Assembly (NCBI GenBank): GCA_964016885.1
Contig: CAXHJY010001285.1
Coordinates: forward strand, 42,157 to 106,156
Length of the DNA: 64,000 nucleotides
Direction of reading: 5' to 3'
Origin: Eledone cirrhosa
Lineage: Eukaryota
Part shown: piece after piece, positions 6,880 through 56,127 of the stretch
Position numbering within the stretch: the stretch's first letter is position 1
Layout of the letters: each line of letters starts with the position of its first letter
The notes under the pieces: model-generated
The model's database searches: none
What the model was told of the DNA's origin: nothing
The model's input: the letters and a program-made list of their open reading frames with translations, nothing else
Translations under genes and position numbers: made by a program

Positions 6880-8557
6880 TGATTCTAAATCTAACGGGAG
6901 AGTAGAGTGTACATTTGGGGTCATCAGTCTAGCACACATATCCGGACAATAAGTGGTGTGGAATCCATTCCCACGCGTCTTGATACCCATTTGTCTCCGT
7001 TATAATAATGCATTAGCTAGAGATGGATACTAGGACAAAATTGAATACATGCATATAGATAGAAACAATTACACATCCACTCATAGCCCCAAACATACCA
7101 TAGACATAAACACTAACATACACACAATTATCGGTAATGAAAATAATAGAGTTACTCGAACCCGAAACAAAAAAGACAGGATAAACCCGGCTACAAATAG
7201 ATATAACTTAAATACTCCCATAAAGTTAAATAGGAGAGTAAGGTCCTGTTCAGTTCTGTGGTACAATCCACCACACTCCTTAGGACTACAAAAAAAACAT
7301 AGCTTTTTTAACGCATTAGATAAATGTTTTCCTAAATCACACAAATACAGTCAAATCTTTAATCGAAACACAATTAAACTTTCTTACTTGACAACCAAAA
7401 GCATAGCCTAGATTACAGCGAAGATTAACAATAGAAATCTGGGAATCAAACAAAGAGATAACTCATAATAGCAAGCACAGAAACACTGGTAGAGTAAACA
7501 GCAACTCGAATAACAAGGATAATATATAAATAATATAAACCAACGGACACACAGACAAAAATGGTAACATAAATAATTGCAATTGCAGCAATCATAACAG
7601 TTTCCCAATGAAAAATAACTATTTAAATGAAAATATTGTTTACGAATATGAAGTAAGAAGGATAATAAAACTTTAAGAAATATTGGTGCAACTTCTACTA
7701 GGTTTAAGGAAAGGTGGTATAACTATTACGACTTATTTAAAAGAGCTGATAAAAGATCTAGCACAGCCTTGTCGGAACTGATTAGGTCGCTAAAAAATAT
7801 ACAAGTGGAATACTCCCTTTCTTGGTCAAAACTCTCACATGCTTTTCCATATATGAATGGATCTATATCTAAGGGGTTTGACCTCTGTACTACAGAGACT
7901 TTGCACATCATAAATAGTAGGCAAACCCTCTGAAATGTTTAATTCTTGTTTACACAAAATTAAGAAGACATTTCGGAGTGTATATAGTTAAAACTTCAGT
8001 AGATAATGTTAAATAGATCATCAAATAATTAATTAAACATTCATAAATATATCGATACATAATAACATCAGCATCAAAGTACAAATATCAAAAATTAGAA
8101 TTTGTATCTAAGTGAATAATATCTATTATAAAAATATTTTGAAATACAGTTTCTACTTGCCCTACTATAGTGACCTAAATCAAGTGACGAATCCGGTAAC
8201 TTGAACCCTAGCCAGTTCACAAGCAGCAACGCCAATCTCACGCACATATAAGAACTGCTACTTGAGGAATTCAGACATATGCTTACTGGTCGGCGAAGCG
8301 AATAACACGTATGACCGGTGACATATCAAAGGAACTTTACATCTCGTTTGTATTTTTGTCTGAAGAGAACGCGTATGGGAGTTGTTATACAACTGCCCTA
8401 CGTCTTTGAAATACGTATAAGAAAATAAATATGGATGTATGAACGAAACCGCCTTTCTTGTTTATTATAAAACTCTGGATGAACAAAAACCGTGGATTGC
8501 TTCATATCTGTTAAGAAAACGTCGGCAGATTTTCAATCAACCAACTTTCTTCAAATT
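6880..8557 (+). mobile_element. Hydra-type PLE, 5'-truncated and decayed (RT C-terminus, linker, GIY-YIG, pLTR)
   Basis: VLWYNPPHS..FFNALDKCFPKSHKYSQIFNRNTIKLSY, CNCSNH, YIGATSTRFKERWY and DLCTTETLHII are homologous to the 15.3-16.6 kb ORF. Hammerhead at 8351; ends at (TA)n. Confidence 0.85.
8351..8427 (+). ncRNA. Type I hammerhead ribozyme motif
   Basis: tatttttgt CTGAAGA [long stem II gcgta-tggg-agttgt/acaact-gccc-tacgt] GAAA tacgta TA agaaaata, with palindromic stem III. Confidence 0.75.
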
Positions 8558-13225: not shown

Positions 13226-13708
13226 AAATACACACATACACACACACACGCACATAAATATCTGTGTGTGAGAGTCCTGGATTCAATAATAGATAACCAC
13301 AGTAAGTAATTTACTCAATAAATTAATAGAGTATATACAACACAATTCAATCTAAAATATCTTCTACATGACTAGAACTGTTCCATTCAAAGGTAACAGT
13401 TATAGTCCTGTAGTCCTTTAGAGGTCATTTCTAGATTATATATATATATATATATATATACATGTAAAGTTAATATTTAAAATTGTTGGGTTACAACTAG
13501 TAAATATTTATAACTGATATAAAAGCACTCGACAAATACTTGGAGTATATTTACAATATTAAATAAATATAGTGTAAGTTTTATAAATACTAATACATTA
13601 AAACATAGGGTTTTCTACGCCTCGAATATGTCTGGCTATTTTTAAATTTTTCTCTCTCTATATCTCTCTATATCTCTCTATATATCTCCCTTACATTAAT
13701 ACTTGAGC

Positions 13709-13743
<35 letters not shown>

Positions 13744-14110
13744 ATGCATCATTGATACACTTACTCAAAATGACCTCCCACTACCTAATTTTTCTATATC
13801 TATATTTATATATGTATCTATCTCTATTTCCTCTCTCTCTCTATATATATATATATATCTCTTTCGGTCTCTTTACATGAAGCTCTTCGCTTTATCTATT
13901 TTTCCATCTCTCTATTTTGTCCCATGCATTTCTTCTTTTTCTTCTTTTTCTTCCTTTTCTTCGTTTTGTCTTTCTTTCTTTCTTATTTCCCTCTTTTCTC
14001 TCTCTCTTTCTTTCTCTCTGTATTTTCACTGCTAGAGTGAACCTCTTCAAATGAAGTTGATGTTTATTACGGTATGTCGAATATATTTATCTATAAAACT
14101 GTTTATATTG

Positions 14111-14176
14111 TATTTTGTCTGATGAAGGCATAGCATATTGTTAATATGATATCCCCGAAATATATATAATGAAATA
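14111..14176 (+). ncRNA. Type I hammerhead ribozyme in the 5' pLTR
   Basis: TATTTTGT CTGATGA [stem II] GAAA tatata TA ATGAAATA. An outer stem I extension TATAAAAC/GTTTTATA is possible. Confidence 0.85.
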
Positions 14177-14356
14177 GATATGGTTTTATAAATATAGTTT
14201 TCCATTTATTTAATATTGTAAATATACTCCAAGTATTTGTCGAGTGCTTTTATATCAGTTATAAATATTTACTAGTTGTAACCCAACAATTTTAAATATT
14301 AACTTTACATGTATCTTGCTCCAATACTGTTGAGCGCTTTATATTATAACTGAAAA

Positions 14357-16569
14357 ATGGAATTCTTTAAGATTACTTCCTCTCTAAAAGACATACCTCT
14401 ACCTAGAAACAAAGACTTTGTAAAACAACTAATAGATAAATCTGACTCTTTTATAAGGAGAATCAGGTGGCGTGCATTCCACTTTGATAAATTTAATGCA
14501 GACGAAAATATCTCGGACTTAAACAAAGTTTTCAAATCTAAAAGAAATCCACCCCCTAACAAACTTTTATCTGACTTTGAAAACGATATAATTTCTATCA
14601 TACAAGGGGTCAAATTCAAGAGAAACTTTAAAGGCCAGGAATATCTGAAAGGCATTAAGGATAACATTGAGAGCTTAGAGAAAACTGAGAAGATCTTGGT
14701 GAAATCTGACAAGACCAACAACCTCTATGGAGTGCAGAAAGACATGTATAATGGCCTCATACTGAAAGAGCTGAGGAAAAAATACAAGGTAGCAGATAAG
14801 ACCGAACTTGTGAAAATGAATGTTGAAGCATCTTGTATAATGCATGAGTTGGAAATTGAGAACAGAACACAACCTTTCGTGCCCAGGAAACCGAAGATCA
14901 ATATGAAGGACCACAAGAGGAATTTTGAGATTGACCTGCCAGTTAGATTAATCGCACCTTCAAAATCGGACCTGGGCAAATTAAGCAAAAACATTCTTGA
15001 CAGGGTGATACTGCAAATTAAGAACTTGGATTATGTATCTAACCTGAGCTTGTGGAAGGGAACTGGAGAGGTTGTTGAGTGGTTTAGGCAAATTAAATAT
15101 GACAATAATAATAGGTTTATTCAACTTGATATAGCTAACTATTATTCTTCTATTACCCCTAGTCTACTAAATAAGGCACTAAATTACGCATTCAAACATA
15201 CGGACCTAACTAGCAAAGAAATGCATATTATATTATCGGCTAGGAAAACTTTGATAGAATTTGATGACAAATTATGGACCAGAGCAGATAGAGATAGCAA
15301 TTTTGACATAACTATGGGATCTTCCGACTCAGCTCAGTAACTGACCTTGTGGGCTTATTTTTAATCAATTCGCTACATAGGAAAATACCTGGTACTACCG
15401 GAGGTTTATATAGGGATGACATGCTTTTACTTATTAATAATAATAACCCTGAACTAAATAGAAAATGTAAACAAATTACAAAATTTTTTAATTACTTTAA
15501 CCTTAAAATAGAAATTGAGAACAACCATAGAATAGTCAATTTCCTAGATATAACATTAAATCTCAACACATGTCTCCACTATCCTTTTCACAAGTTGAAT
15601 GAAAACTTAAACTATGTCAACTTTAACTCTAACCACCCCAGATCTGTCAAAAACACTATAGTAAACTCAGTCCAAAAACGTATCTCTAGGATCTCGTCGA
15701 ATAGAAAGATTTTTGACGAAAAGGCCCAATACTATAATGATGCACTAGCTAGGGCAGGGTATGCTGATAAGATTGTGTACATAGATAATGATAAACAAAC
15801 TAAACAAAGTAACAACTTTTTTAATTATGGCAACAACATTAACAACTATAATAGAAAGCATTACAATAATTCCAAAGGACAAAAAAGAAATAGAACTAGG
15901 AACATAATTTGGTTTGCCCCCCCTTTCTCACTAAACATTAAAACCCACATCGCTAAATTATTTTTCAAAGCTCTTGATAATCGCTTCCCTAGAACACATA
16001 GGTACCACTCAATCTTCAATAGGCATACAATTAAATTAACCTACTCATCCACCAAAAATTTAGCACAAAATATTAATAGAATAAATAATAGGAACTTAAA
16101 ACCTACTGATAATAGCATAAATAATATACAAGTTAACAAATGTAACTGTAGAGATAGATCTAAATGTCCGTTAAATAACAACTGCTTAGTTAAAAATATA
16201 GTATACAATTGTAATGTTAATACTGACTCTAATTCTTTTAACTACGTCGGTTCCACATCGACGGAATTTAAACTTCGCTATAATAACCACAAGAACTCTT
16301 TCACAGATCCAAATAAAAAATCTTCAACGGCACTATCAGGTGTACTCTGGCAACTTAAGCTAGATAACGTTAGATATTCGACGGCTTGGAATATAGTCTC
16401 AAGAGGGATTCCTTTTAATTCATCCTCTGAGACATGTGACCTCTGCGCAGAGGAGATAGTCTTTATACTAAAATCTAAAAATTCCCTTAACCTACGGACA
16501 AATTTATTCAGTTGTTGCAAACATAGATTAAACTCAACGTTTAAATATAAATTTAAATTTAAAATGTAG
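14357..16569 (+). pseudogene. PLE RT + C-terminal GIY-YIG endonuclease (about 737 aa once a 1-nt frameshift at about 15337 is repaired)
   Basis: SLKDIPLP..RIRWRA, KSDKT, FIQLDIANYYSSI, TMGSSDSAQ|(V)TDLVG, GLYRDD, NFLDITL, SNHP, CNCRDRSKCPLNNNCL, NIVY..YVG..FKLRYNNH, CDLCAEE, LN, CKH. Confidence 0.92.
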
Positions 16570-17722
16570 TATATTTAGTTTGATTTATATTTATATGAGA
16601 ACTAGCCGATAAATCTTTTGATTCCTAAATCTTTGATTCCCTCTTTTTACTCTTTTTATTGTTTATTTTATTTTATTTATTTTTATTTTTATTTTTATTT
16701 TTATTTTTATTTTTATTTTTATCTAAACATTCCTCATGAAAAATTAAGCTACCCTAAAAGCCGATGCTCCAAATTTTCTGAATTAACCTTACACTTGATA
16801 AACTTATATATTAAATATAGGAACATATGTAGACATTATTGGACATCATAATCTTTTTTGCGATATTCCTTGCTAGATGTGATTTGATAGATAATTTTTG
16901 GCTTTGTCTTGTAGTGAACTTGGCAATATATTGTCAATTAACCTTGAAGGGTTGTTCTTTGTGGTTTATTTTTATTTTCATTTTTATTTTTATTTTCATT
17001 TTTATTTTTATTTTTATTTTTATTCTTTTAGTATTGTAGTATTCTATAATATTTTTATATTTTTATTTTTTATTTTTTATATGTAAATTTTTTTTACATG
17101 TAAATTTTTATTTTTAAATTTTTATTTTTAATATTTTTAATATTTTTATATGTAAAGTTTTAATACGTAATATTTTTAATACGTAGTATTTTTAATATGC
17201 AATATTTTTATTATGTAATATTCTTTCGTAATATTCTTTTTTAGTTTTCTATTCTATATTTTTATATTTTTATATATTTTTACTTATTATCATTATTATT
17301 GTTATCTCTGCTTATAATATAATATATATTTTCGATTAGTATATTGAAATCTGCTCTCTATTTCTGCTTGATAGATAATCTTGTAGAGTAATCGCAAGAA
17401 TAATAATACGCTCAAATTTTTATACCACATTGAGAATGTTTTCCGGTAACTTTGAATTTGCGGAGTGAATCAGTTGGATTCACATAGACATATGAATTTT
17501 TTTTTTAAAAACTAAACATAAGATAATGAATTTTCACGCATTGTGAATACTTGTTTCATTCAGGAATACTGATATTTACAATATAGTGTAAGTTTTATAA
17601 ATACTAATACATTAAAACATAGGGTTTTCTACGCCTCGAATATGTCTGGCTATTTTTAAATTTTTCTCTCTATATATCTCTCTATATCTCTCTATATATC
17701 TCCCTTACATTAATACTTGAGC

Positions 17723-17757
<35 letters not shown>

Positions 17758-18118
17758 ATGCATCATTGATACACTTACTCAAAATGACCTCCCACTACCT
17801 AATTTTTCTATATCTATATTTATATATGTATCTATCTCTATTTCCTCTCTCTCTATATATATATATCTCTTTCGGTCTCTTTACATGAAGCTCTTCGCTT
17901 TATCTATTTTTCCATCTCTCTATTTTGTCCCATGCATTTCTTCTTTTTCTTCTTTTTCTTCCTTTTCTTCGTTTTGTCTTTCTTTCTTTCTTATTTCCCT
18001 CTTTTCTCTCTCTCTTTCTTTCTCTCTGTATTTTCACTGCTAGAGTGAACCTCTTCAAATGAAGTTGATGTTTATTACGGTATGTCGAATATATTTATCT
18101 ATAAAACTGTTTATATTG

Positions 18119-18184
18119 TATTTTGTCTGATGAAGGCATAGCATATTGTTAATATGATATCCCCGAAATATATATAATGAAATA
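18119..18184 (+). ncRNA. Type I hammerhead ribozyme in the 3' pLTR
   Basis: Identical to 14111-14176. Confidence 0.85.
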
Positions 18185-18222
18185 GATATGGTTTTATAAA
18201 TATAGTTTTCCATTTATTTAAT

Positions 18223-18321
<99 letters not shown>

Positions 18322-28647: not shown

Positions 28648-30965
28648 TGTAGAAGATCACGCCACCTAGCTTTGACTTTGGAGGCAGTCGATTAACTGCC
28701 CTTAGTTCTGACGTCACGTTCTGAGTCTGAGGTCAGTAGCTGAATACACACTCTTTTGAACTTCGTGTGTTTATGCGAGCAGATGCATTTCACGGTGGCG
28801 AAACAGCGATATCATACCATGCGGTCACGGGATATTTGAACATCGCCACGAAATGCTAATTACGAATTACCAATCATGGAGCGACTGATATGATAACCTG
28901 TTTTGTTTATTGCTCTGGTTAAAATGCTCATGTACATATAATCTCGAAGTATGTTCATTTGGCTTAATTATTTACCTACACCTAACAACAAATAAAAGAG
29001 ATGATCTAGCAGCCAAGCTAGGAAAACGAACTCCCCTCTAAATCGTAAAACAACGCAACCTTGTAAAATTAGTGACCATCTCTCCTAAAGTAGTGTGGCC
29101 CCGATTATGCATCACACAGCCTTCTAAAAAACTTCGAAAAACTTCTAAAAAAAAATTCTAGAGAAACAGAAAAAAAAAACTGATGAAACTAATATTTTAT
29201 TTCTTGCAACTATGCGAAAATAACGAAATTGAAAAATGTTCGTTTAACACAAAAAAAAATTCACAATGGCTGACTGGTCCGCGAATTTTCCCGCCAATTG
29301 TCTTTCTTCTCCGAAATGCAGCCATCTGATTGGCTGAGACACATTATGTGATGCCATCTCCTTCCCCAATTTAAAAAAAAAACAAACATTTAATATTTCT
29401 GCCATGAAGTGATTTGTCTTGTCGACTTCGGATTGTTTTTTACAAATTCACCCGATTATTTTCCCTGTTAAGGACACTTGAGAACATTTATTTTTTTCTA
29501 TTCTTCTGCCTTTATGGATATTGGAGGAAATTTGTGCTGTTTTCCCGTTCTTCTGAACAACTAAAGAAATTTCTGCATTCTTTTTACGTGAATATCACTT
29601 ATTTTTGTACGTCCAAGCTGATATAGATTGACAATGAGTGGTCCTAATTTACCTGCTTCTTCACATTCGAACCAGCCCGTCTCGTCACGCGAGGATGCCA
29701 TGTTAAAAGCTATTGACGCTTTGACGCAGCAAGTCGCTCAGTTATGCAGGGAGAATAGGCCGTATTCCCAGCGGCCTAGGAGTCGTTCGCGTTCTTTCGC
29801 AACTCCACGTCGGCATATTACTTCGCCCGCCAGCAAATCCATTATTTTGCTGGTATCATGCCACCTTCGCGGAGAAGGCGAAACATTGCCAGCCTCCATG
29901 TAAATATTCAGCTTCGGGAAATGTAGATCAGAATCACTAAAGGCGGCAAGTGAACTCTGCGAGATACAACAGAACCGCCATTTCTTCATAGAGGACCTCC
30001 TGTCTGGAACATCTTTCCTCGTAGATACGGGAGCCTCCTGCAGCATTTTGCCAGTGAACTGTGTTAAAGAAACTCCTCCTGAGTCATCAATGAATCTACA
30101 AGCTGTCAATCCTTCGCCGATACGGACTTTTGGACAAATCTCGCTTCTTCTGCAATTCAGAAATCTTCGACGAGAATTCAAATGGATTTTTACGGTTGCT
30201 GACCTACCATACTCGATCTTGGGAGCGGATTTTCTACACCATTTTGCATTGACGGTGGACGTCCGTGGCCGACGCCTAGTAGACGACATTACTGTTTTTT
30301 CTCTTCGTGGACTGAAAGCTAATTTTCCAACGGTTAGCCCGACCTTTTTCATCGCTAATGCTGGGAATTCCTATCATGCATTGTTGAATTCTTTCCCACG
30401 GCTTACTCAGGGAAATTTTCGAGTTGTCGGAGGGTTCATTGGCCCAAAAAACTGTGTAGAACTGTATATTTTTAAGCTGCTATTGTGCGGCGCTTTAATC
30501 CTATATTTTCTATTTGAACTATTTGAACTTTTAAAAATCGTATTTACATTTTATTATAATTTTTTTCTTTCTCGTTCTTGCATGCTTGTTTCATATGTTC
30601 TTTTGAAATTTGTTGTGCACTTCAAGCTCGGTTGGGCTGATTGCTCCTTGGTTTGGGGTTTTTGCTAGTTGCTCATCGTTTTTTCTACATACATGGTCCG
30701 ATGAACCGATTTGTATTTCTTTTTCTAAAAATCTGGTGGGAGACCATGTAGAAGATCACGCCACCTAGCTTTGACTTTGGAGGCAGTCGATTAACTGCCC
30801 TTATTTCTGACTTCACGTTCTGACGTCAGTAGCTGAATACACACTCTTTTCAACTTAGTGTGTTGATGCGAGAAGGCGCATTTCACGGTGGCGAAATAGC
30901 GATATCACACCATGCGGTCACGGGATATTTGAACACAGCCACGAAATGCTAATTACGAATTACCA
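28648..30965 (+). mobile_element. Gypsy/Ty3 LTR retrotransposon (CsRn1-like), internally deleted
   Basis: LTRs 28648-28872 and 30747-30965 (TG..CA). PPT-like GGTGGGAGA precedes the 3' LTR. Gag CHCC finger and protease are present; no RT, RNase H or integrase. Confidence 0.85.
29628..30420 (+). pseudogene. Gag C-terminus + aspartic protease
   Basis: AIDALTQQVAQL..RSRSRS, then CWYHATFAEKAKHCQPPC after a frameshift. The -1 frame reads FLVDTGASCSILP..ILGADFL. Confidence 0.85.
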
Positions 30966-31951: not shown

Positions 31952-33898
<1,947 letters not shown>

Positions 33899-36400: not shown

Positions 36401-37282
36401 TATTGTTATGCTTTGGGAGGGTCATGTTGCCAATAAGAAACACACGCACCAGTTGCTTTCACTCCAATTTATTATAAATTAAATTTATAAATTTAAGAAT
36501 TTATAAATTTCCGGTTGGTTGGTTGATTTCACAACCGGACGGTTGTTCATATATTGTTAAAGCTCTTTCATGATACATTCTGTGACCTCTTCAGTGACTG
36601 GGGATTCTTTTCTTTGTTTTTGTGCCTCTCCTTTGTTCTGTCCTACATCATCTTGTTTTTGTGTGTGTTGTGTGCTTAGTTTGCGCATGTGTTACATCCG
36701 GGTGACTGTGTGTGTTTATATTTGTTTATTTATTTGTTTATTTACCTGTTACTGGTTGGTTGTTTGTTCTATGTGTGTGTGTATTTTCATTTTGTCCTTA
36801 ATTGTAAGTTGTGATGTTGCTATTCCATTCACGTTTTCTATTTAATTTTGGTTGGAGTTCATTTATGTTTATTGCCTCCGTTATTCGTCTAAACATTGCG
36901 TCTTTTCTGTGTGTAGATTCTATTTTTATTTCTATGTTCTCTAATTTACCCTTATGTTCTATTTTAGCATGTTGTTGGAGTACAGATGATTCTTTTCTAT
37001 TTTGAAGCTCTTGCCAGTGTTCATTTATCCGTTCCCCTATACTACGTGCTGTCTCATCTATGTACACTATATTCTTATCCGGTTGTGGAACCAACCAACC
37101 AACCGGAATTTTATAAATTCTTAAATTTATGAATTTTATTTATAATAAATTGGAGTGAAAGTAACTGGTGCGTGTGTTTCTTATTGGCAACATGACCCTC
37201 CCAAAGCATAACAATATCGGTTTCAACACACGTTTTCAGATAAAGAATCTTGCTAAACAAATTCAGAAACGACATATATTAT

Positions 37283-37290
<8 letters not shown>
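36401..37290 (-). mobile_element. Nematis/Neptune-like PLE 3' fragment with about 140 bp inverted pLTR ends (36401-36539 / 37078-37216)
   Basis: YIDETARSIGERINEH..SVLQQHAKIEH..RRITEAINI..PKLNRKREW. Hammerhead-like motif at 36553-36600(-). (TA)n on both sides. Confidence 0.85.
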
Positions 37291-37341
<51 letters not shown>

Positions 37342-37346
37342 AATAT

Positions 37347-37376
<30 letters not shown>

Positions 37377-37377
<1 letters not shown>

Positions 37378-37866
37378 AGTAAAAGAGAACCCAAATCACT
37401 TAAACGCATTCTCACTGGACCAAATATACCCAAACCAATCCTCAACCTTACAGTTACCAAATGTGGTAGAACAAACTGTGGAACGTGCCTCTACCTCAAT
37501 GAAGGACAAACATTTACATTCAAAGATGGCCAAACATTTACAGTAAAAAACAATTTCACCTGCAACTCGGAGAACTTGATTTACGCAATAACTTGCGGTG
37601 GGTGCAAACACAACTACATAGGACAGACGGGCACCTCATTACGCAAAAGAATGACCATCCACCGCCAACAAATCCGGGACGCTAACACAAGAAAAATCCC
37701 CTTGAGCAGACATATTGCGAACTGCACAGGAATGAGACTACCCAACTTTAAAATCTTCCCCTTCTACAAGTGCTCAGATTCGTTCACACAGCAACAAAGA
37801 ATAAACAAAGAAAATCTATTCCTTAACAAATTTAAACCAAAACTAAACGGGTTATTACCCCAATAG
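37377..37866 (+). pseudogene. Neptune-type PLE GIY-YIG domain fragment (open frame, 5'-truncated)
   Basis: CGRTNCGTC..FTCNSENLIYAITCGGCKHNYIGQTGTSLRKRMTIH..PKLN. Confidence 0.88.
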
Positions 37867-44229: not shown

Positions 44230-44445
44230 CAAAATTTATAAAACAAACTTTGTATTTTATCCGATGAAAGCGTACCAAAGTGTTGGTACCCTTGAAATAT
44301 ATATATAATAGAATAAATATGGTTTTATAAATATAGTTTCCATTTATTTAATATCATTGAATATTATACTCCAGAAAACTTGTCGAGTGCTCTAAATCAG
44401 TTATAAACATTTATATCTGTTGAATTACCAACAAATTGAATATCC
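44230..44445 (+). mobile_element. Solo pLTR end related to the 13.5-18.2 kb element, with hammerhead motif 44253-44315
   Basis: TATTTTAT CCGATGA aagcgtaccaa-agtg-ttggtaccctt GAAA tatatata TA ATAGAATA, then GGTTTTATAAATATAGTTT..TGTCGAGTGC as at 14182-14250. Confidence 0.78.
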
Positions 44446-48818: not shown

Positions 48819-51800
48819 TTGTGAGGTTTTTGATATGAAACTGTGTGTCGAAACAAATATTGTTATACTTGGGGAGGGTCATATTTGTGTAATATTGCCA
48901 GACTTAATAACAGAACACACTCACTGTTTCGTTGGTTTTCGCTTTTCGCTTCTGTGTCTTTTATATCGGTAATCTAATTTATTCGGTCCTCAATATTGCC
49001 ATTGATGACCAACGGTCAAAAATAATACAGATACAATGTAGACACAAACACATATATATAGTTTATCAAAGTTCTTTCGTTGCACATCTGCAAGATCGTC
49101 AGTGGTGCTATTGTTTACTCCCGTTGCATTGTATTTTCTACGCCATCTTTATTTAGTCTGTTTATATATTTATTTATTTGTTTGTTTATTTTGTCTTCTT
49201 TGCGCATGCGTTTGCGTGTGTGTATAGTGTTTTGTTTGATGTGTGTTCGTGATTGGGTGACTGTGTATTGGTTAATGTATTCTATCTTTACTAGTGTGTG
49301 TTTATATGTGTTTGTTGTTATTGTGCTTGTGTATTTATTTATTTATTTATTTATCTATTTATTTATACTTCTCTTAGGTCAGTGTTGTTTGTTTGGGTGT
49401 TGTTGTTATTCCATTCATTCTTTCTGTTTAGCCTTGGCCTTCTAAGTTCTATTTCACTGGCCTCTCTGATTTGCCTATCTGCTGGGTCATTCCTATGTTT
49501 AGATATTATTCTAATTTCTATGTTGTCTATGTTACCGTCGTGTTGTTGTCTGGCATGTTCGTATAGTACTGAACCGTTTTATTCGTCCTTTTAGTTCCCC
49601 CCAGTGTTGGTCTATCCTTTCACCTATGCTACGCGCTGTCTCGCCTATGTATGTTTTTGTCATGTTTCTGAAAGTACCATCTGTACATCTTATGATATAG
49701 ACTACGTTTCTAGTTTTAGAGTTTATCCGGAGGTTTACCTTACATATGATACATTTTCTATTAGTATAGTGGGTTTTCTTAAAAGGGTAGGTTTTGCTGA
49801 TCAGGGATTTTATGGTGGTTCCTGGCATTTCTACAACCTTAATCTTTAAGTGGGTCTTTCTCTAGGGCCTTTCTACACTGGTTAGCTAATTTCCCTCCAG
49901 GGGTAGCGTCTACAAACATGACACTCTGGTATCTCTGGTTGTTGTACCATGAGGTGGCTTTCCCTATCTTATGTCTAGCCCTATCTAAGCTATTCCATGA
50001 TTTGCTCCTGTATAATGGGCAAATTCCTTTCATGTCCAGTTCTATGAGGGTCTTATACTTCTCCATGGCTCCTTCGTATACTCTGAATCTGTCTCTTTGG
50101 TTGTATCCAGAGAACTGCATACGGTTGATGAAGTGTTGGATGTGTCTTTCCATTTCTGTTGGGTCGCACATGCGGGTAACATTCTTCATCACTCGTACCA
50201 AATCTGCAATCAGAATATTAAACTTAGCACTGCTGGACATTGCTGAGTTTTTGAGTATCAGGTATTTGGAGGCCATGGGTTTAGCATAGTGTGAGTGTAG
50301 AATTTGGTCTCTCTCGTCTATAGTGTTAATCCAGAGTTCCGTGTCTAATACAGGTAGTCAATTGTTAGGGTGTTTGGAAGGGTAATCTATAGTTACAGTT
50401 ATACTCTGGTGGATAGAATTAGCTATCTGCTGGATGCTTTCCATTGTGCTACGTTCTAAATCAAACTTGTTAGTGCTCTCTAGTGGGGATATTCTTATAA
50501 CTATATTGATATCGTCTACGTAACGAGAGTACATGATGAGGTCTATGGAGCTCTCATTAAGGAGATCTTTAAGTCTCCTTTCCCACCATACCATAAAAAG
50601 GTTGGCAACATCACCAGCTATGCTGACGCAATGGTTGCTCCTTCATTTTGGGTGTAGATCTTCTCGTTGAACTTGAATATGTGGCCCTTTAGGGTAGTTT
50701 TGATACTAGCCCTTATTGCATGTGCGACCATGTTTCTTACCTGATCATTGTTTTGGGGGGTCCGTATAACTTTGGTCCACCCAATCCAAGTTCCCATGGG
50801 AGTCTTTTTAGCCATTGAGGTTATGGTGGGGGGTCTACCTCTTATGGATCTACTAGGGCAGAAACGTCTAAGGTCATGGTTGTCTAGGTAGTCAGTGTCA
50901 TAGGTAAGTCTAAGTAGGAGGCCCTGTTCGTCTGTGTCGACGTCGCAGAACTCCACCTCACTCTCAATGATCATCTCCACACATTTTTCCACAGCAAAAT
51001 CAATGTTAATGGATGGGTACAGTGATACCATATCCATGCTGCCTATTATGCAGTTGGATAGGTTCCTGTTTTTGTTGCAATCACCGATTCTGCTGAGGAG
51101 GTCCTCTGTACTGTCACATACATCTGGGGACATCTTGATTATGGGGCGTAAAACCATTGAGAGGAAGTAGGAGATCCTGTAGTTTCTAGCTATATTTGCT
51201 CCGCATACGGGTCATGTTGGTGGTCCTGTTGTCGGGTCGTCGACTGTCTTGTGGTCTTTGCGGAGCCCATACAAGAGTGGTATGCCATTATTAGACGCCT
51301 GGAACTTGTTGGCAGTGCGTCTGCTTGACTTTAGCATGTCGGTCCACATCATCATGTGAGCGTTGAGGATTTTCCCTCTCCCATCATGTGTTTGCTGTGC
51401 AATTTCGCTCGTGTTGGTGATGTGGGGTTGCATAGCCTTGATGTAGTTCGGCATGCTATCTATTGACATCCTACCAGACTTATCCGTGGGTAGACATACT
51501 ACCTCACCATTCCTTGTGCGCTGCTTGAGGCTAACCAAGCCTTCTACATGTTTCCTCCCATGTTGTTGGGCCTCTGGTCTGCTCTGTCTCTTAGTATACC
51601 GGTCTACTATTTGTCTAATCTTATTTCTAGCTATGGTGAAATGTGCCTCTGTCTGGTCATCTATTTGTTGTGGTATGCAAACTCTTTTATTGAAGGGTAA
51701 CCTCGTAGGATAGATTTTACCCATCTTATATGTTTTGTCAGCTGGGTTGAAGAATAGATTCTCTAAGGGGTTGTCATTATATCTATCGTCATAGTTGTGT

Positions 51801-52990
51801 GTGTTGCTATTATTGTTATTATGGCGGTTGTTGTTGTTCCTATCATTAGCATTATTATTATTGTTATGATTGCTAGATGTATTGTTGCTGTGATTGTTGT
51901 TTACTTCACCGTTATTGTTGTTGTTACTGTTATTTCTACCATTGTGGTTGTTACTTTTATTACGTTTCTTGTTTTTGTTGTGTCTATCATTAATGTTGCT
52001 ACATGTATTATTTCTATTATTACCACTGTGGTTGTTGTTGTTGTTATTCGTATTGTTGCTGTTATTACTACTGTGGTCGCTGCTGCTGTGTCTGTAGTTA
52101 ATGTTTCTATTATTATTATTGTGGTTGTTCTGTCTATCGTTAGTATTATTATCATTATTACTATTTCTCACTCTCCTGCTATTGTTATTGTTATGACTAT
52201 TACTATTATAGCTGTTATTTCTATACTCAGAGTTATTGTTTATATTAGTACTACCGTTATTATTGTTGTTGTTGTCCGTATAGTTGTTGTTGTTGTTTAC
52301 TTTTGCATTGCAACGTATTTTTGTGAAACACTTTTCCAGCTCCATTTTGCACACAATAGGCTTAATCTTTTTGTAGATGGAAAATTTTGGTGGTAGCTGC
52401 AGGATTTGTTGTTCTTGTTCGCTGATTAAAGTGTTCCCATAAATATTTACTGTGTGGTCATTGGTAAATTCTTCCGGTAGTTTTACATCAGTCATACGGA
52501 TATTGTTGATGTCATCTGGGTATTTTTGAGAATATTCTATTTTCCTTTCTTGTAGTTTTTTCTTATTCATCCATTCTAATTTCTTATTTAAATGCATATT
52601 GCATTCGTTTCGGGCGTATTTCGTTTCACGTCGGATGACGCTCATGAAGTCATCCCTTTCGTTTGGTGTGGTGAGATTTTGGACTTCCTTACCGTTAATG
52701 CGTTTCTGTCAGTAAAGTTCGTTGACTTTTGTATATGTTGTTATTTTCATATTAACTGTTATTGTGTGTTTTAGTCGTTCAACTTGTGTTTTGTTCAATA
52801 ATAAATTATTTACTTGTTTTGATATGTTTGTTGTGTATATTTTGGAGGAAACACAATGTTTTAAGAAGTGGATTTGTTCTGTTGTTATTGTAGTTTTTAC
52901 ATAACAGAAAACAGTGTCTTTCAATAACCTTTCAGCTTGGCACAAGCTAATGCCATAACAGCGAACAAATCCTGCAGCTACCACCAATAT
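48815..52990 (-). mobile_element. Nematis/Neptune-like PLE, near full-length ORF (about 1200 codons), disrupted
   Basis: LPPKFS, Asn-rich tract, PTDKSG, LYGLRKDHK, GSMDMVSLYPSI, YSRYVDD, LPVLD, FVDATPGGKLA, CIIC..NVVY..YIGETARSIGER. Three in-frame TGA codons and three frameshifts. Confidence 0.92.
49062..49110 (-). ncRNA. Hammerhead-like motif in the pLTR (partner at 55881-55925 +)
   Basis: CTGACGA tc-ttgca-gatg-tgcaa-c GAAA gaac TT tgat; stem I is weak. Confidence 0.5.
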
Positions 52991-53468: not shown

Positions 53469-53780
53469 GTAAACATGTTAAAAATAGGCGAAGAGAAAAA
53501 AACGTACCAGATGGAAGTGTGAAACTGTCCTGGAATCAGATCCCTCGGTAAAACTGAGACAAATTCTACACTGGCCAAAGTGCCAGCTGTGGTCAACAGA
53601 AGGTTCCTTGCCGGAGAATCGACAATCGTCATGGTTTCTGTCCGAATTTGGGGCAGGGGTCAGACACCCGTGTACCCCAAGTTGACTTATTCGACGGCGC
53701 GAAGACTCTAAATCCGAATATTTATCACGTTCGGGACAATACATCACTAATACGAATACATCGATCGATTGTCCGATGTA

Positions 53781-56127
53781 GACCCGTATGCGGAGCAAAT
53801 ATAGCTAGCAACTACAGGATCTCTTACTTCCTCTCAATGGTTATACGCCCCATAATCAAGATGTCCCCATATGTATGTGACAGTACAGAGGACCTCCTCA
53901 GCAGAATCGGTGATTGCAACAAAAACAGGAACCTATCCAACTGCATAATAGACAGCATGGATGTGGTATCACTGTACCCATCCATTAACATTGATTTTGC
54001 TGTGGAAAAATGTGTGGAGATGATTATTGAGAGTGAGGTAGAGTTCTGCGACGTCGACACAGACGAACTGGGCCTCCTACTTAGACTTACCTATGACACT
54101 GACTACCTAGAAAGACATGACCTTAGACGTTTCTGCCCCAGTAGACCCATAAGAGGTAGAGCCCCCACCATAACCTCAATGGCTAAAAAGACTCCCATGG
54201 GAAGTTGGATTGGGTGGACCAAAGTTATACGGACCCCCCAAAACAATGATCAGGTAAGAAAAATGGTTGCACATGCAATAAGGGCTAGTATCAAAACTAC
54301 CCTAAAGGGCCACATATTCAAGTTCAACGAGAAGATCTACACCCAAAATGAGGGAGCAGCCATTTGCGTCAGCATAGCTGGTGATGTTGCCAACCTTTGT
54401 ATGGAATGGTGGGAAAGGAGACTTAAAGAACTCCTTAATGAGAGCTCCATAGACCTCATCATGTACTCTCGTTACGTAGACGATATCAATATAATTATAA
54501 GAATATACCCACTAGAGAGCACTAACAAGTTTGATTTAGAACGTAGCACAACGGAAAGCATCCGGCAGATAGCTAATTCCATACACCAGAGTATAACTGT
54601 AACTTTCGACTACCCTTCCAAACACCCTAACAATAGACTGCCTGTATTAGACACGGAACTCTGGATTAACACTATAGATGAGAGAGCGCAAATTCTCTAC
54701 TCTCACTACGCTAAACCCATGGCCTCCAAATACCTGATACTCAAAAACTCACCAATGTCCAGTAGTGCTAAGTTTAATATTCTGATTGCAGATTTGGTAC
54801 GAGTGATGAAGAATGTTACCCGCATGTGCGACCTAACAGAAAGGTAAAGACACATCCAACACTTCATCAACCGTATGCAGTTCTCCGGCTACAACCAAAG
54901 AGACAGAGTCAGAGTATACGAAGGAGCGATGGAGAAGTATATGAACCTCATATAACTGGACATGAAAGGAATTTGCCCATTATACAGGAGCAAATCATGG
55001 AATAGCTTAGATAGGGCTAGACATAAGATAGGGAAAGCCATATCTTGGTACGACAACCAGAGATACCAGAGTGTCATGTTTGTGGTCGCTACCCCTGCAG
55101 GGAAATTAGCTAACCAGTGTAGAAAGGCCCTGAGAAAGACCCACTTAAATATTAAGGTAGTAGAAAAGCCAGGAACCACCATAAAATCCCTGATCAGCAA
55201 AACCTACCCTTTTAAGAAAACCCACTGTACTAATAGGAAATGTATCATATGTAAGGTAAACCCCCGGATAAACTGTAAAACTAGAAACGTAGTCTATAGC
55301 ATAAGATGTACAGAGGGTACTTGCAGAAACATGACAACAACATACATAGGCGAGACAGTTCGTAGCATAGGTGAAAGGATAGACCAACACTGGGGGGAAC
55401 TGAAAGGACGAAAAGGCGGTTCAGTACTATACGAGCATGCCAGACAACAACACGACGGTAACATAGACAACATAGAAATTAGAATAATATCTAAACATAG
55501 AAATAACCCAGCAATAGGCAAATCAGAGAGTCCAGTGAAATAGAACTTAGAAGGCCAAGGCTAAACAGAAAGAATGAATGGAATAACAACAACACCCAAA
55601 CAAACAACACTGACCTAAGAGAAGTATAAATAAATAGATAAATAAATAAATAAATACATACACAAGCACAATAACAACAAACACATATAAAAACACAGTA
55701 GTAAAGATATAATACATTAACCAATACACAGTCACCCAATCACGAACACACATCAAACAAAACACTATACACACACGCCAACGCATGCGCAAAGAAGACA
55801 AAATAAAATAAACAAATAAATAAATATATAAACAGACTAAATAAAGATGGCGTAGAAAATACATGCAACGGGAGGAAACAATAGCACTACTGACGATCTT
55901 GCAGATGTGCAACGAAAGAACTTTGATAAACTATATATATGTGTTTGTGTCTACATTGTATCTGTATTATTTTTGACCGTTGGTCAGTCAATGGCAACAT
56001 TGAGGACCGAATAAGTTAGATTACCGATATAAAAGACACAGAAGCGAAAAGCGAAAAACCAACCAAACAGTGTGTGTTCTGTTATTAATTCTGGCAATAT
56101 TACACAAATGTGACCTTCCCCAAATAT

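Follow-up and report, generated by a model that had tools for sequence, protein, structure and literature searches.

Genomic copies of a very young Hydra-clade Penelope-like element in Eledone cirrhosa point to two-site priming on one, probably circular, RNA

We analyzed a Penelope-like element (PLE) in a 64,000-nucleotide (nt) stretch of Eledone cirrhosa DNA (assembly GCA_964016885.1, contig CAXHJY010001285.1, positions 42,157 to 106,156, forward strand), hereafter the window. The element lies in (TA)n at 13458–18228 of the window, and plus signs below count from the first base 3′ of its predicted ribozyme cut (+1 = 14169). On its left side, the (TA)n target (13437–13457), the kind of sequence in which nearly all arms of the family terminate, follows an older repeat (13270–13436) that is partly palindromic and has many 80–88% relatives. 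Next comes a short inverted arm on the minus strand (13458–13568), which has its +146 3′ end, the long (L) end, facing outward and is 5′-truncated at +36. This arm is 100% complementary to 14204–14314 over 111 nt and overlaps the main arm by 3 nt (13566–13568). A first-pass annotation of the window had described it as a 111-bp inverted tail at the 5′ end; the exact inverted sequence was found, but it is a second, 5′-truncated copy with its 3′ end outward, and not a 5′ tail. The main arm, on the plus strand, begins with the 5′ pseudo-long terminal repeat (pLTR; 13566–14220), identified by alignment and markers as part of that arm's second pass through the 3′ untranslated region (UTR). Within and behind this pLTR lie a type I hammerhead motif (14111–14176, predicted cut after 14168), the short (S) start site at +50 to +52 (14218–14220), which shares TA with the target, and the L start site at +143 to +146 (14311–14314), which shares TAT with it. 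Both start sites, which were located from the arm ends, fall in a structured RNA core (+21 to +202; 14189–14370). The open reading frame (ORF) follows in two parts (14357–15340 and 15338–16569), then a 1.6-kb 3′ UTR with (TTTTTA)n blocks and microsatellites (16570–18176), and the 3′ pLTR (17580–18228), which carries the second hammerhead motif (18119–18184, predicted cut after 18176) and ends at the S site. On the right side, (TA)n and then (GT)n occupy 18229–18320.

The window copy is thus a head-to-head pair of one L-ended and one S-ended arm (L+S). As previously annotated, its pLTRs are nearly identical: the alignment of 13566–14220 with 17580–18228 shows a single mismatch (C at 13658, A at 17672), where a CT microsatellite meets an AT one, together with a 6-nt gap, also in a microsatellite, and none of 14 lineage markers differs between them. 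An extra T near 14299 was present in both the short arm and the body of this copy and in none of 61 other loci, indicating that the insertion had its own template-level changes. No empty allele of the insertion site was seen when 40 of 1320 candidates were scored, the best other match being 83–88%. Taken alone, the window copy is ordinary.

The first ORF part carries RWR, DKT and the reverse transcriptase (RT) motifs as far as motif B, and a 1-nt deletion at 15335–15337 precedes its end. The second part, whose open frame in the window spans 15307–16569, carries the rest of the RT with YRDD, the thumb, an N-rich linker, CxCx5C from 16141, GIY-YIG, CxxC and CxH. It had been proposed that the two would join if one G were restored; indeed, all 29 other fetched loci have one extra base at the break, G or A, and the natural unbroken copies encode 737 amino acids (aa) with MGSSDSAQVTDLVG, YRDD and CNCRDRSKC. 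The broken form has a single match in the 3.0-Gb assembly against 287 for the unbroken 33-mer, so the frameshift of the assembled window copy is private to it. In restriction site-associated DNA sequencing data from three other samples of the same species label, 111 of 115, 62 of 64 and 44 of 45 reads at the break had the additional base, counts that speak to the state of the family and not to the window's own deletion. As assembled, the window copy cannot encode a whole RT, yet its cis parts are all present and it could be mobilised in trans.

In intact copies, RWR lies at residues 37–39, DKT at 118–120, CxCx5C at 596–604, CxxC at 694–697 and CxH at 721–723. Among 65 relatives, the third residue of the RW(K/R) motif is K in 36 and R in 21. 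Y617, Y630, G632, R641 and H645 of the GIY-YIG domain are invariant in 66 sequences, E700 and N712 are nearly so, and CCHH is absent, CxxC occurring in none of the 66 over a range that includes the GIY-to-YIG interval. Pfam matched neither the window ORF pieces nor the intact protein, its GIY-YIG profile gave weak matches in 5 of the 66 members, the query not among them, and in the Protein Data Bank the sequence search gave no match and the profile search only hits at E ≥ 0.39. PLEs are the closest relatives of telomerase. The structure model of an intact copy (mean predicted local distance difference test score, pLDDT, 89.9) had TERT 3du5 as its best Foldseek match (E = 1.2e-9) and telomerase 6zdp as its best VIA match (Z 15.9, root-mean-square deviation 2.7, 253 aligned residues), with a diversity-generating retroelement RT tied at Z 15.8. 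By this model, the RT appears telomerase-like. The C-terminal GIY-YIG domain, pLTRs, tandem and inverted insertions and one-sided tail are the traits of an endonuclease-bearing (EN+) PLE. Database relatives of the intact protein share 30–41% identity with it, the named ones being Argonauta hians proteins, two of which grouped with the query in a quick tree (Shimodaira–Hasegawa-like approximate likelihood ratio test, SH-aLRT, 95). RWR, DKT, CxCx5C, CxxC and CxH, the absence of CCHH, a hammerhead motif near the 3′ end that parses like those tabulated for the clade and the (TA)n target all match the description of the Hydra clade; only the size (<3 kb, a typical and not a strict trait) does not, the unit of 4008–4011 nt being longer than the norm because of the 1.6-kb repeat-rich 3′ UTR. 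Thus, comparison of motifs with the clade description supports placing the element as a new member of the Hydra clade, as the first-pass annotation had it.

Copies of the element were then compared across the genome. Of the complete ORF regions fetched, 41 of 67 were open and in frame, so that the proposed search for intact-ORF copies succeeded, and the family has dozens of intact copies in the genome. Between loci, the median distance of the ORFs is 25 substitutions; no more than 2 were counted in 182 of 2202 pairs, and members of one subfamily are only 0–3 apart over 2.2 kb. Given the many intact ORFs and this subfamily, the family is very young. Its intact, near-identical copies are spread over many chromosomes, as expected of the young and recently active family that had been suggested. 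The family tree is ladder-like, with the youngest cluster on several chromosomes and the window copy just beneath it; being at least 4 substitutions from its nearest neighbour, the window copy is not itself the youngest of the family. Changes common to at least three copies were silent in 29 cases and replacing in 18, compared with 47 and 72 for rare changes (p = 0.015), a contrast consistent with selection. Exact pattern matches in the genome numbered 1547 for S ends, 783 for L ends and 68 for L read-throughs; the S and L counts are not comparable because the S pattern is common to more subfamilies. At least one older sister Hydra family (~78% in the ORF; L209–L238, L219, L255–L276) has many short L+S insertions and shows compensating changes in hammerhead stem II, and its locus L219 continues into the sister ORF. 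Two near-identical loci, L252 and L253 (C1: 211.76 and 212.23 Mb), probably a segmental duplicate, hold a lone sister-family fragment (about +149 to +218) between TA runs. ORF pieces, some with 0–2 differences in 120–220 nt, were also seen at low depth in sequencing runs of three other organisms (X4, X6 and X7); they may represent close relatives, horizontal transfer or carried-over DNA, which are indistinguishable here.

Next, the ends of the arms were mapped in 92 loci and the window. Outer arm ends fall almost only at +50 to +52 (S) or +143 to +146 (L), followed by (TA)n, and most insertions are head to head. Among head-to-head pairs with both ends canonical (sets A–C, which hold 10 further pairs with a clipped or odd end), 73 of 75 were L+S, two were L+L and none was S+S; one apparent L+L exception, L161, had been fetched as such and was counted. 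A subset taken in chromosome order by ORF motif alone gave 43 of 43 L+S, genome-order lists on C1, which partly overlap the other sets, 34 of 34, and additional pairs 6 of 6; the sister family gave 18 of 18 with 3 odd. Before counting, 11 short arms of older sister families were removed; the pair counts, like the repeat-marker counts below, exclude the mini insertions L159, L160 and L169 as well as L163. In one (TA)n region (L139: 4407–9990), three adjacent head-to-head L+S insertions mark an insertion hot spot. Behind each start site lies a bulged hairpin (14226–14245 and 14318–14335), the two being one duplicated motif in both families, and a closing helix pairs 14198–14207 with 14355–14362, covering the ATG. 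The predicted fold of the core had z = −4.04, equalled by 0 of 200 shuffles, and a similar core fold is predicted for the sister family. In the openly readable literature (preprint supplements apart), we found no published counted L+S pairing and no ribozyme-less PLE mini insertions.

Lineage markers were used to compare the two arms of each insertion, with L083 excluded as misaligned. Only 6 of 1756 marker comparisons were discordant, compared with 641 expected, and all 58 informative insertions were concordant, compared with ~14 expected from other loci (the marker sites are linked). In L089, the ORFs of both arms stop at an identical 493-aa break. This concordance indicates one source per insertion, and we infer that the arms come from one RNA molecule. 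Tandem pieces within an arm behaved similarly (55 pieces, 49 loci, several lineages), with 12 of 1925 markers discordant against 595 expected, as if the pLTR were re-made from one unit and not copied from two separately ageing repeats. Of the 55 second-pass arms, 40% continue for at least 1200 nt, and 35 of 62 arms of at least 3950 nt end at L. No hard stop was seen at the ribozyme cut: no arm ends at +1, and 7 of 62 second-pass arms stop within +160 to +1. Only one locus among the 68 exact L read-throughs has two in tandem at unit spacing. This sole tandem array holds 3.4 units, the first two identical over 4011 nt, and its ORFs lie 7–10 substitutions from the youngest subfamily compared; the youngest cluster does not derive from it.

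Mini insertions were found at five loci, a minimum because one search scored 40 of 1290 candidates and the others required exact matches. All five (L159, L160, L169, L188 and L258) lie in (TA)n as head-to-head L+S pairs and consist solely of a permuted unit of 170–195 nt. Each has its own junction, from +200 to +213 back to +10 to +28: +204 to +10 in L159, +210 to +21 in L160, +202 to +21 in L169, +213 to +18 in L188 and +200 to about +28 in L258. In L159, one arm crosses the junction five times and the other twice, all 7 copies being letter-identical, and both arms share the junction in L159, L160 and L169. The units retain both start sites, both hairpins and the closing helix and are without the hammerhead core; their junctions fall immediately outside the closing helix as predicted, and show 1–4 nt of microhomology. 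Over four mini insertions, a test for clustering of junctions gave p ~4e-5 on the 3′ side, partly forced by the search design, and p ~0.05 on the 5′ side. We regard the mini insertions as the most direct sign that RT reads joined templates repeatedly, and also as a sign that the ribozyme core may be dispensable in the template. In sequencing run X1, a contig steps back 238 nt from window 14394 to 14157, with 10 other letters at the joint (depth 411); this may be another permuted mini form, from a sister family.

The hammerhead motif has its CTGATGA core at 14119, GAA at 14157–14159 and position 17 at A14168, with an 8-bp stem I, a palindromic stem III and an extra A between A9 and G10.1. These features agree with the Discussion of PMC4209133, where PLE hammerheads of like build are thought to work as dimers. 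The exact motif of the window is by far the commonest form among the fetched loci. Its parse yields predicted cuts at 14168/14169 and 18176/18177, spaced 4008 nt apart, and so reproduces the 14169–18176 unit of the first-pass annotation. Rfam reported no hammerhead over the window at the gathering score, and none over 13400–18300 at E ≤ 10. The annotated intact hammerhead in each pLTR is therefore a motif-based claim: a full motif with its core stands in both pLTRs, and Rfam support for it is lacking.

From these results, we consider the following reading fairly probable: the window copy is a frameshifted member of a very young Hydra-clade PLE family with many intact ORFs; the family inserts by cutting (TA)n, both DNA ends priming one RNA at two fixed internal sites; and this RNA is probably a circle that is copied for more than one turn. 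The genomic record strongly favours two-site priming on one RNA, and moderately favours joined templates. In the proposed sequence of events, transcription would start from the pLTR, the protein would grip the structured core just behind the hammerhead, and the GIY-YIG domain would nick both strands. One RT would start at +146 and the other at +52, each a few bases before its hairpin; both would copy upstream and stop at variable points, after which the complementary DNA (cDNA) ends would be joined head to head, often via an overlap of 1–11 nt. Failure of the partner would leave a one-armed copy. Because the start signals lie downstream of the copied stretch, a pLTR–ORF–pLTR copy would have the full start signal only at its 5′ end, and a full-length daughter would for this reason need joined transcript ends. 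The simplest joining would be hammerhead cleavage at both pLTRs followed by ligation into a 4008-nt circle, for which the mini insertions and the concordance of repeats give indirect support. Passing beyond one round would rebuild the pLTR, and trimmed core fragments could close into circles of 170–195 nt that would be mobilised without the ribozyme core. More tentatively, with a confidence somewhat short of even, we suggest that the family is an active autonomous PLE that normally copies circular RNA: one ribonucleoprotein would grip the 180-nt core, prime both cut ends from the two sites marked by hairpins and roll round the circle, rebuilding the pLTRs each generation, while any fragment with the core could likewise close and be rolled, the ribozyme-less mini circles recording how retrozyme-like parasites arise from their helper.

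Several observations weigh against this account. Cleavage, ligation and circles are all predicted from genomic copies; the hammerhead fold of the monomer is −1.7 kcal/mol, compared with −7.6 kcal/mol for the minimum-energy fold, and the Rfam profile misses the motif. The mini junctions lie 10–30 nt off the predicted ribozyme cut and lack the hammerhead core, and the two L+L insertions violate the pairing of one L with one S. Second-pass arms are shorter than first-pass arms (median 885 versus 1387 nt, log-rank p = 0.017, the first-pass sample being biased to long pairs), and 9 of 55 stop 600–710 nt upstream, compared with 4 of 76 (p = 0.043, a post hoc bin), stops that could mark the transcription start of linear templates. 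One arm in L078 enters a gap, and the assembly may lack a long tandem source. In vitro, Poseidon of Anolis carolinensis (PAc) used uncleaved RNA as its main template, and its ribozyme mutants inserted normally (Frangieh et al. 2024, PMC11167929).

Several of these points would fit the same two-site priming on an uncut linear read-through of tandem or L-ended sources, in which transcribed (UA)n aids L priming, rare long master arrays keep the pLTRs alike, and the hammerhead trims or is a passenger. In its favour, uncleaved RNA was dominant in vitro with no reads ending at the cut (PMC11167929), the stops at −600 to −710 are a possible pile-up of 5′ ends, the 3.4-unit array exists, and the many long arms in one young lineage could stem from one unseen master. 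However, the concordance of repeats extends across several lineages, the youngest subfamily does not stem from the sole array, the mini insertions display internal L priming and repeated passage of one junction, and pure linear copying would be expected only to shorten arrays. We therefore judge this explanation unlikely. Less likely still, and in our view rather improbable, is that there is no covalent circle, and that RT jumps precisely from the 5′ end to the 3′ end of a linear RNA, cut by the ribozyme or trimmed, whose ends are kept close by the closing helix or by protein. Such a jump would account for the concordance of repeats equally well as a circle, and would suit mini junctions just outside the predicted closing helix with 1–4 nt of microhomology. 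Against such a jump, the seven junction copies of L159 are letter-identical, and the full-length junction passes seamlessly through the hammerhead in its commonest motif, while template jumps by other RTs often add bases. Finally, the inverted and tandem structures could originate in DNA, if one cDNA folds back or primes itself, if the element inserts into its own copies, or if gene conversion or unequal crossing over follows insertion. Such an origin would likewise make arms alike, and antisense-template self-priming has been proposed for rotifer PLEs in the available text of PMC3846280. As the sole cause, we consider it very improbable, since fold-back of a single cDNA cannot yield an arm that reaches 94 nt beyond the other and does not account for the constant pairing of L with S, and the overlap of arms takes any length from <100 nt to more than one unit.

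As far as the available text of Craig et al. (2021, PMC8557442) describes them, Hydra-clade EN+ PLEs such as Hydra-1_Obim of Octopus bimaculoides share with the Eledone family a single ORF with RT followed by GIY-YIG, RW(K/R), DKT, CxCx5C, CxxC and CxH, the lack of CCHH, a type I hammerhead with palindromic stem III and a (TA)n target. By that same text, Hydra elements are generally <3 kb, whereas the Eledone unit is 4.0 kb; Hydra-1_Obim is listed without a pLTR, whereas in the Eledone family pLTRs and inverted arms are present and dozens of ORFs are intact; and the Eledone family departs at a few conserved positions, with N716 for E and S323 for Y/F. PAc likewise has two internal RT starts behind the hammerhead that define a tail, an AT-rich target, and cutting and extension of both target strands (PMC11167929). 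However, its tail is 30–40 nt and within the ORF, whereas the Eledone sites lie ~94 nt apart and upstream of the ATG, and its two start sites were used without strand difference in vitro, whereas the Eledone family uses one per side in vivo (PMC11167929). Partial tandems and an inverted 5′-truncated copy are also common to Penelope of Drosophila virilis and rotifer Penelope; there the tail is described, in the text available, as "optionally" or "often" one-ended (PMC2377424, PMC3846280), whereas the Eledone pattern was counted with template markers.

Regeneration of the pLTR was termed unexplained in the 2008 literature available to us, and hammerhead cleavage, ligation and reverse transcription of more than a unit were proposed for PLEs in 2014 (PMC4209133). 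In the parts of these sources that treat it, the circular-template model is proposed and not demonstrated (PMC4209133, PMC7229834, PMC7761336, bioRxiv 10.64898/2026.07.22.740005). Metazoan non-LTR retrozymes are there described as short tandem units thought to ride on PLEs (PMC7229834, PMC7761336, bioRxiv 10.64898/2026.07.22.740005). Each retrozyme unit, as described, has a hammerhead, whereas the Eledone mini insertions have lost the core and derive directly from the 5′ region of the autonomous element; with units of about +10 to +213, they lack the hammerhead in every tandem unit that characterises non-LTR retrozymes. The family thus bears on how PLEs rebuild their pLTRs and on the role of the hammerhead, for which circles have been proposed while uncleaved RNA sufficed in the only full in vitro study. 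It offers intact natural ORFs 0–3 bases apart and, delimited by the five mini insertions found in nature, a candidate cis element of 180 nt, and the proposed mechanism predicts one start site per DNA strand and more-than-unit products only from joined RNA. Together, these make the template question directly testable.

Other elements were also observed in the window. A hammerhead motif of a different family (8352–8424, plus strand) has a CTGAAGA core, a long stem II and a palindromic stem III, with (TA)n near 8555. At 33655–33690 (plus strand), a minimal hammerhead motif of the type usual at PLE ends runs into (TA)n; a nearly identical stretch adjoins the arm in L189. A 79% relative of the family hammerhead and tail, with the core CCGATGA and a (TA)n end, lies at 44250–44413 (plus strand). 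Remnants of further elements, identified by eye from their motifs, occur at 37165–37866 (plus strand), 51212–52708 (minus strand), 53558–54847 (plus strand) and 29904–30668 (plus strand): a GIY-YIG that has cysteine pairs, an ORF rich in N, a divergent RT bearing YVDD and a retropepsin-like stretch.

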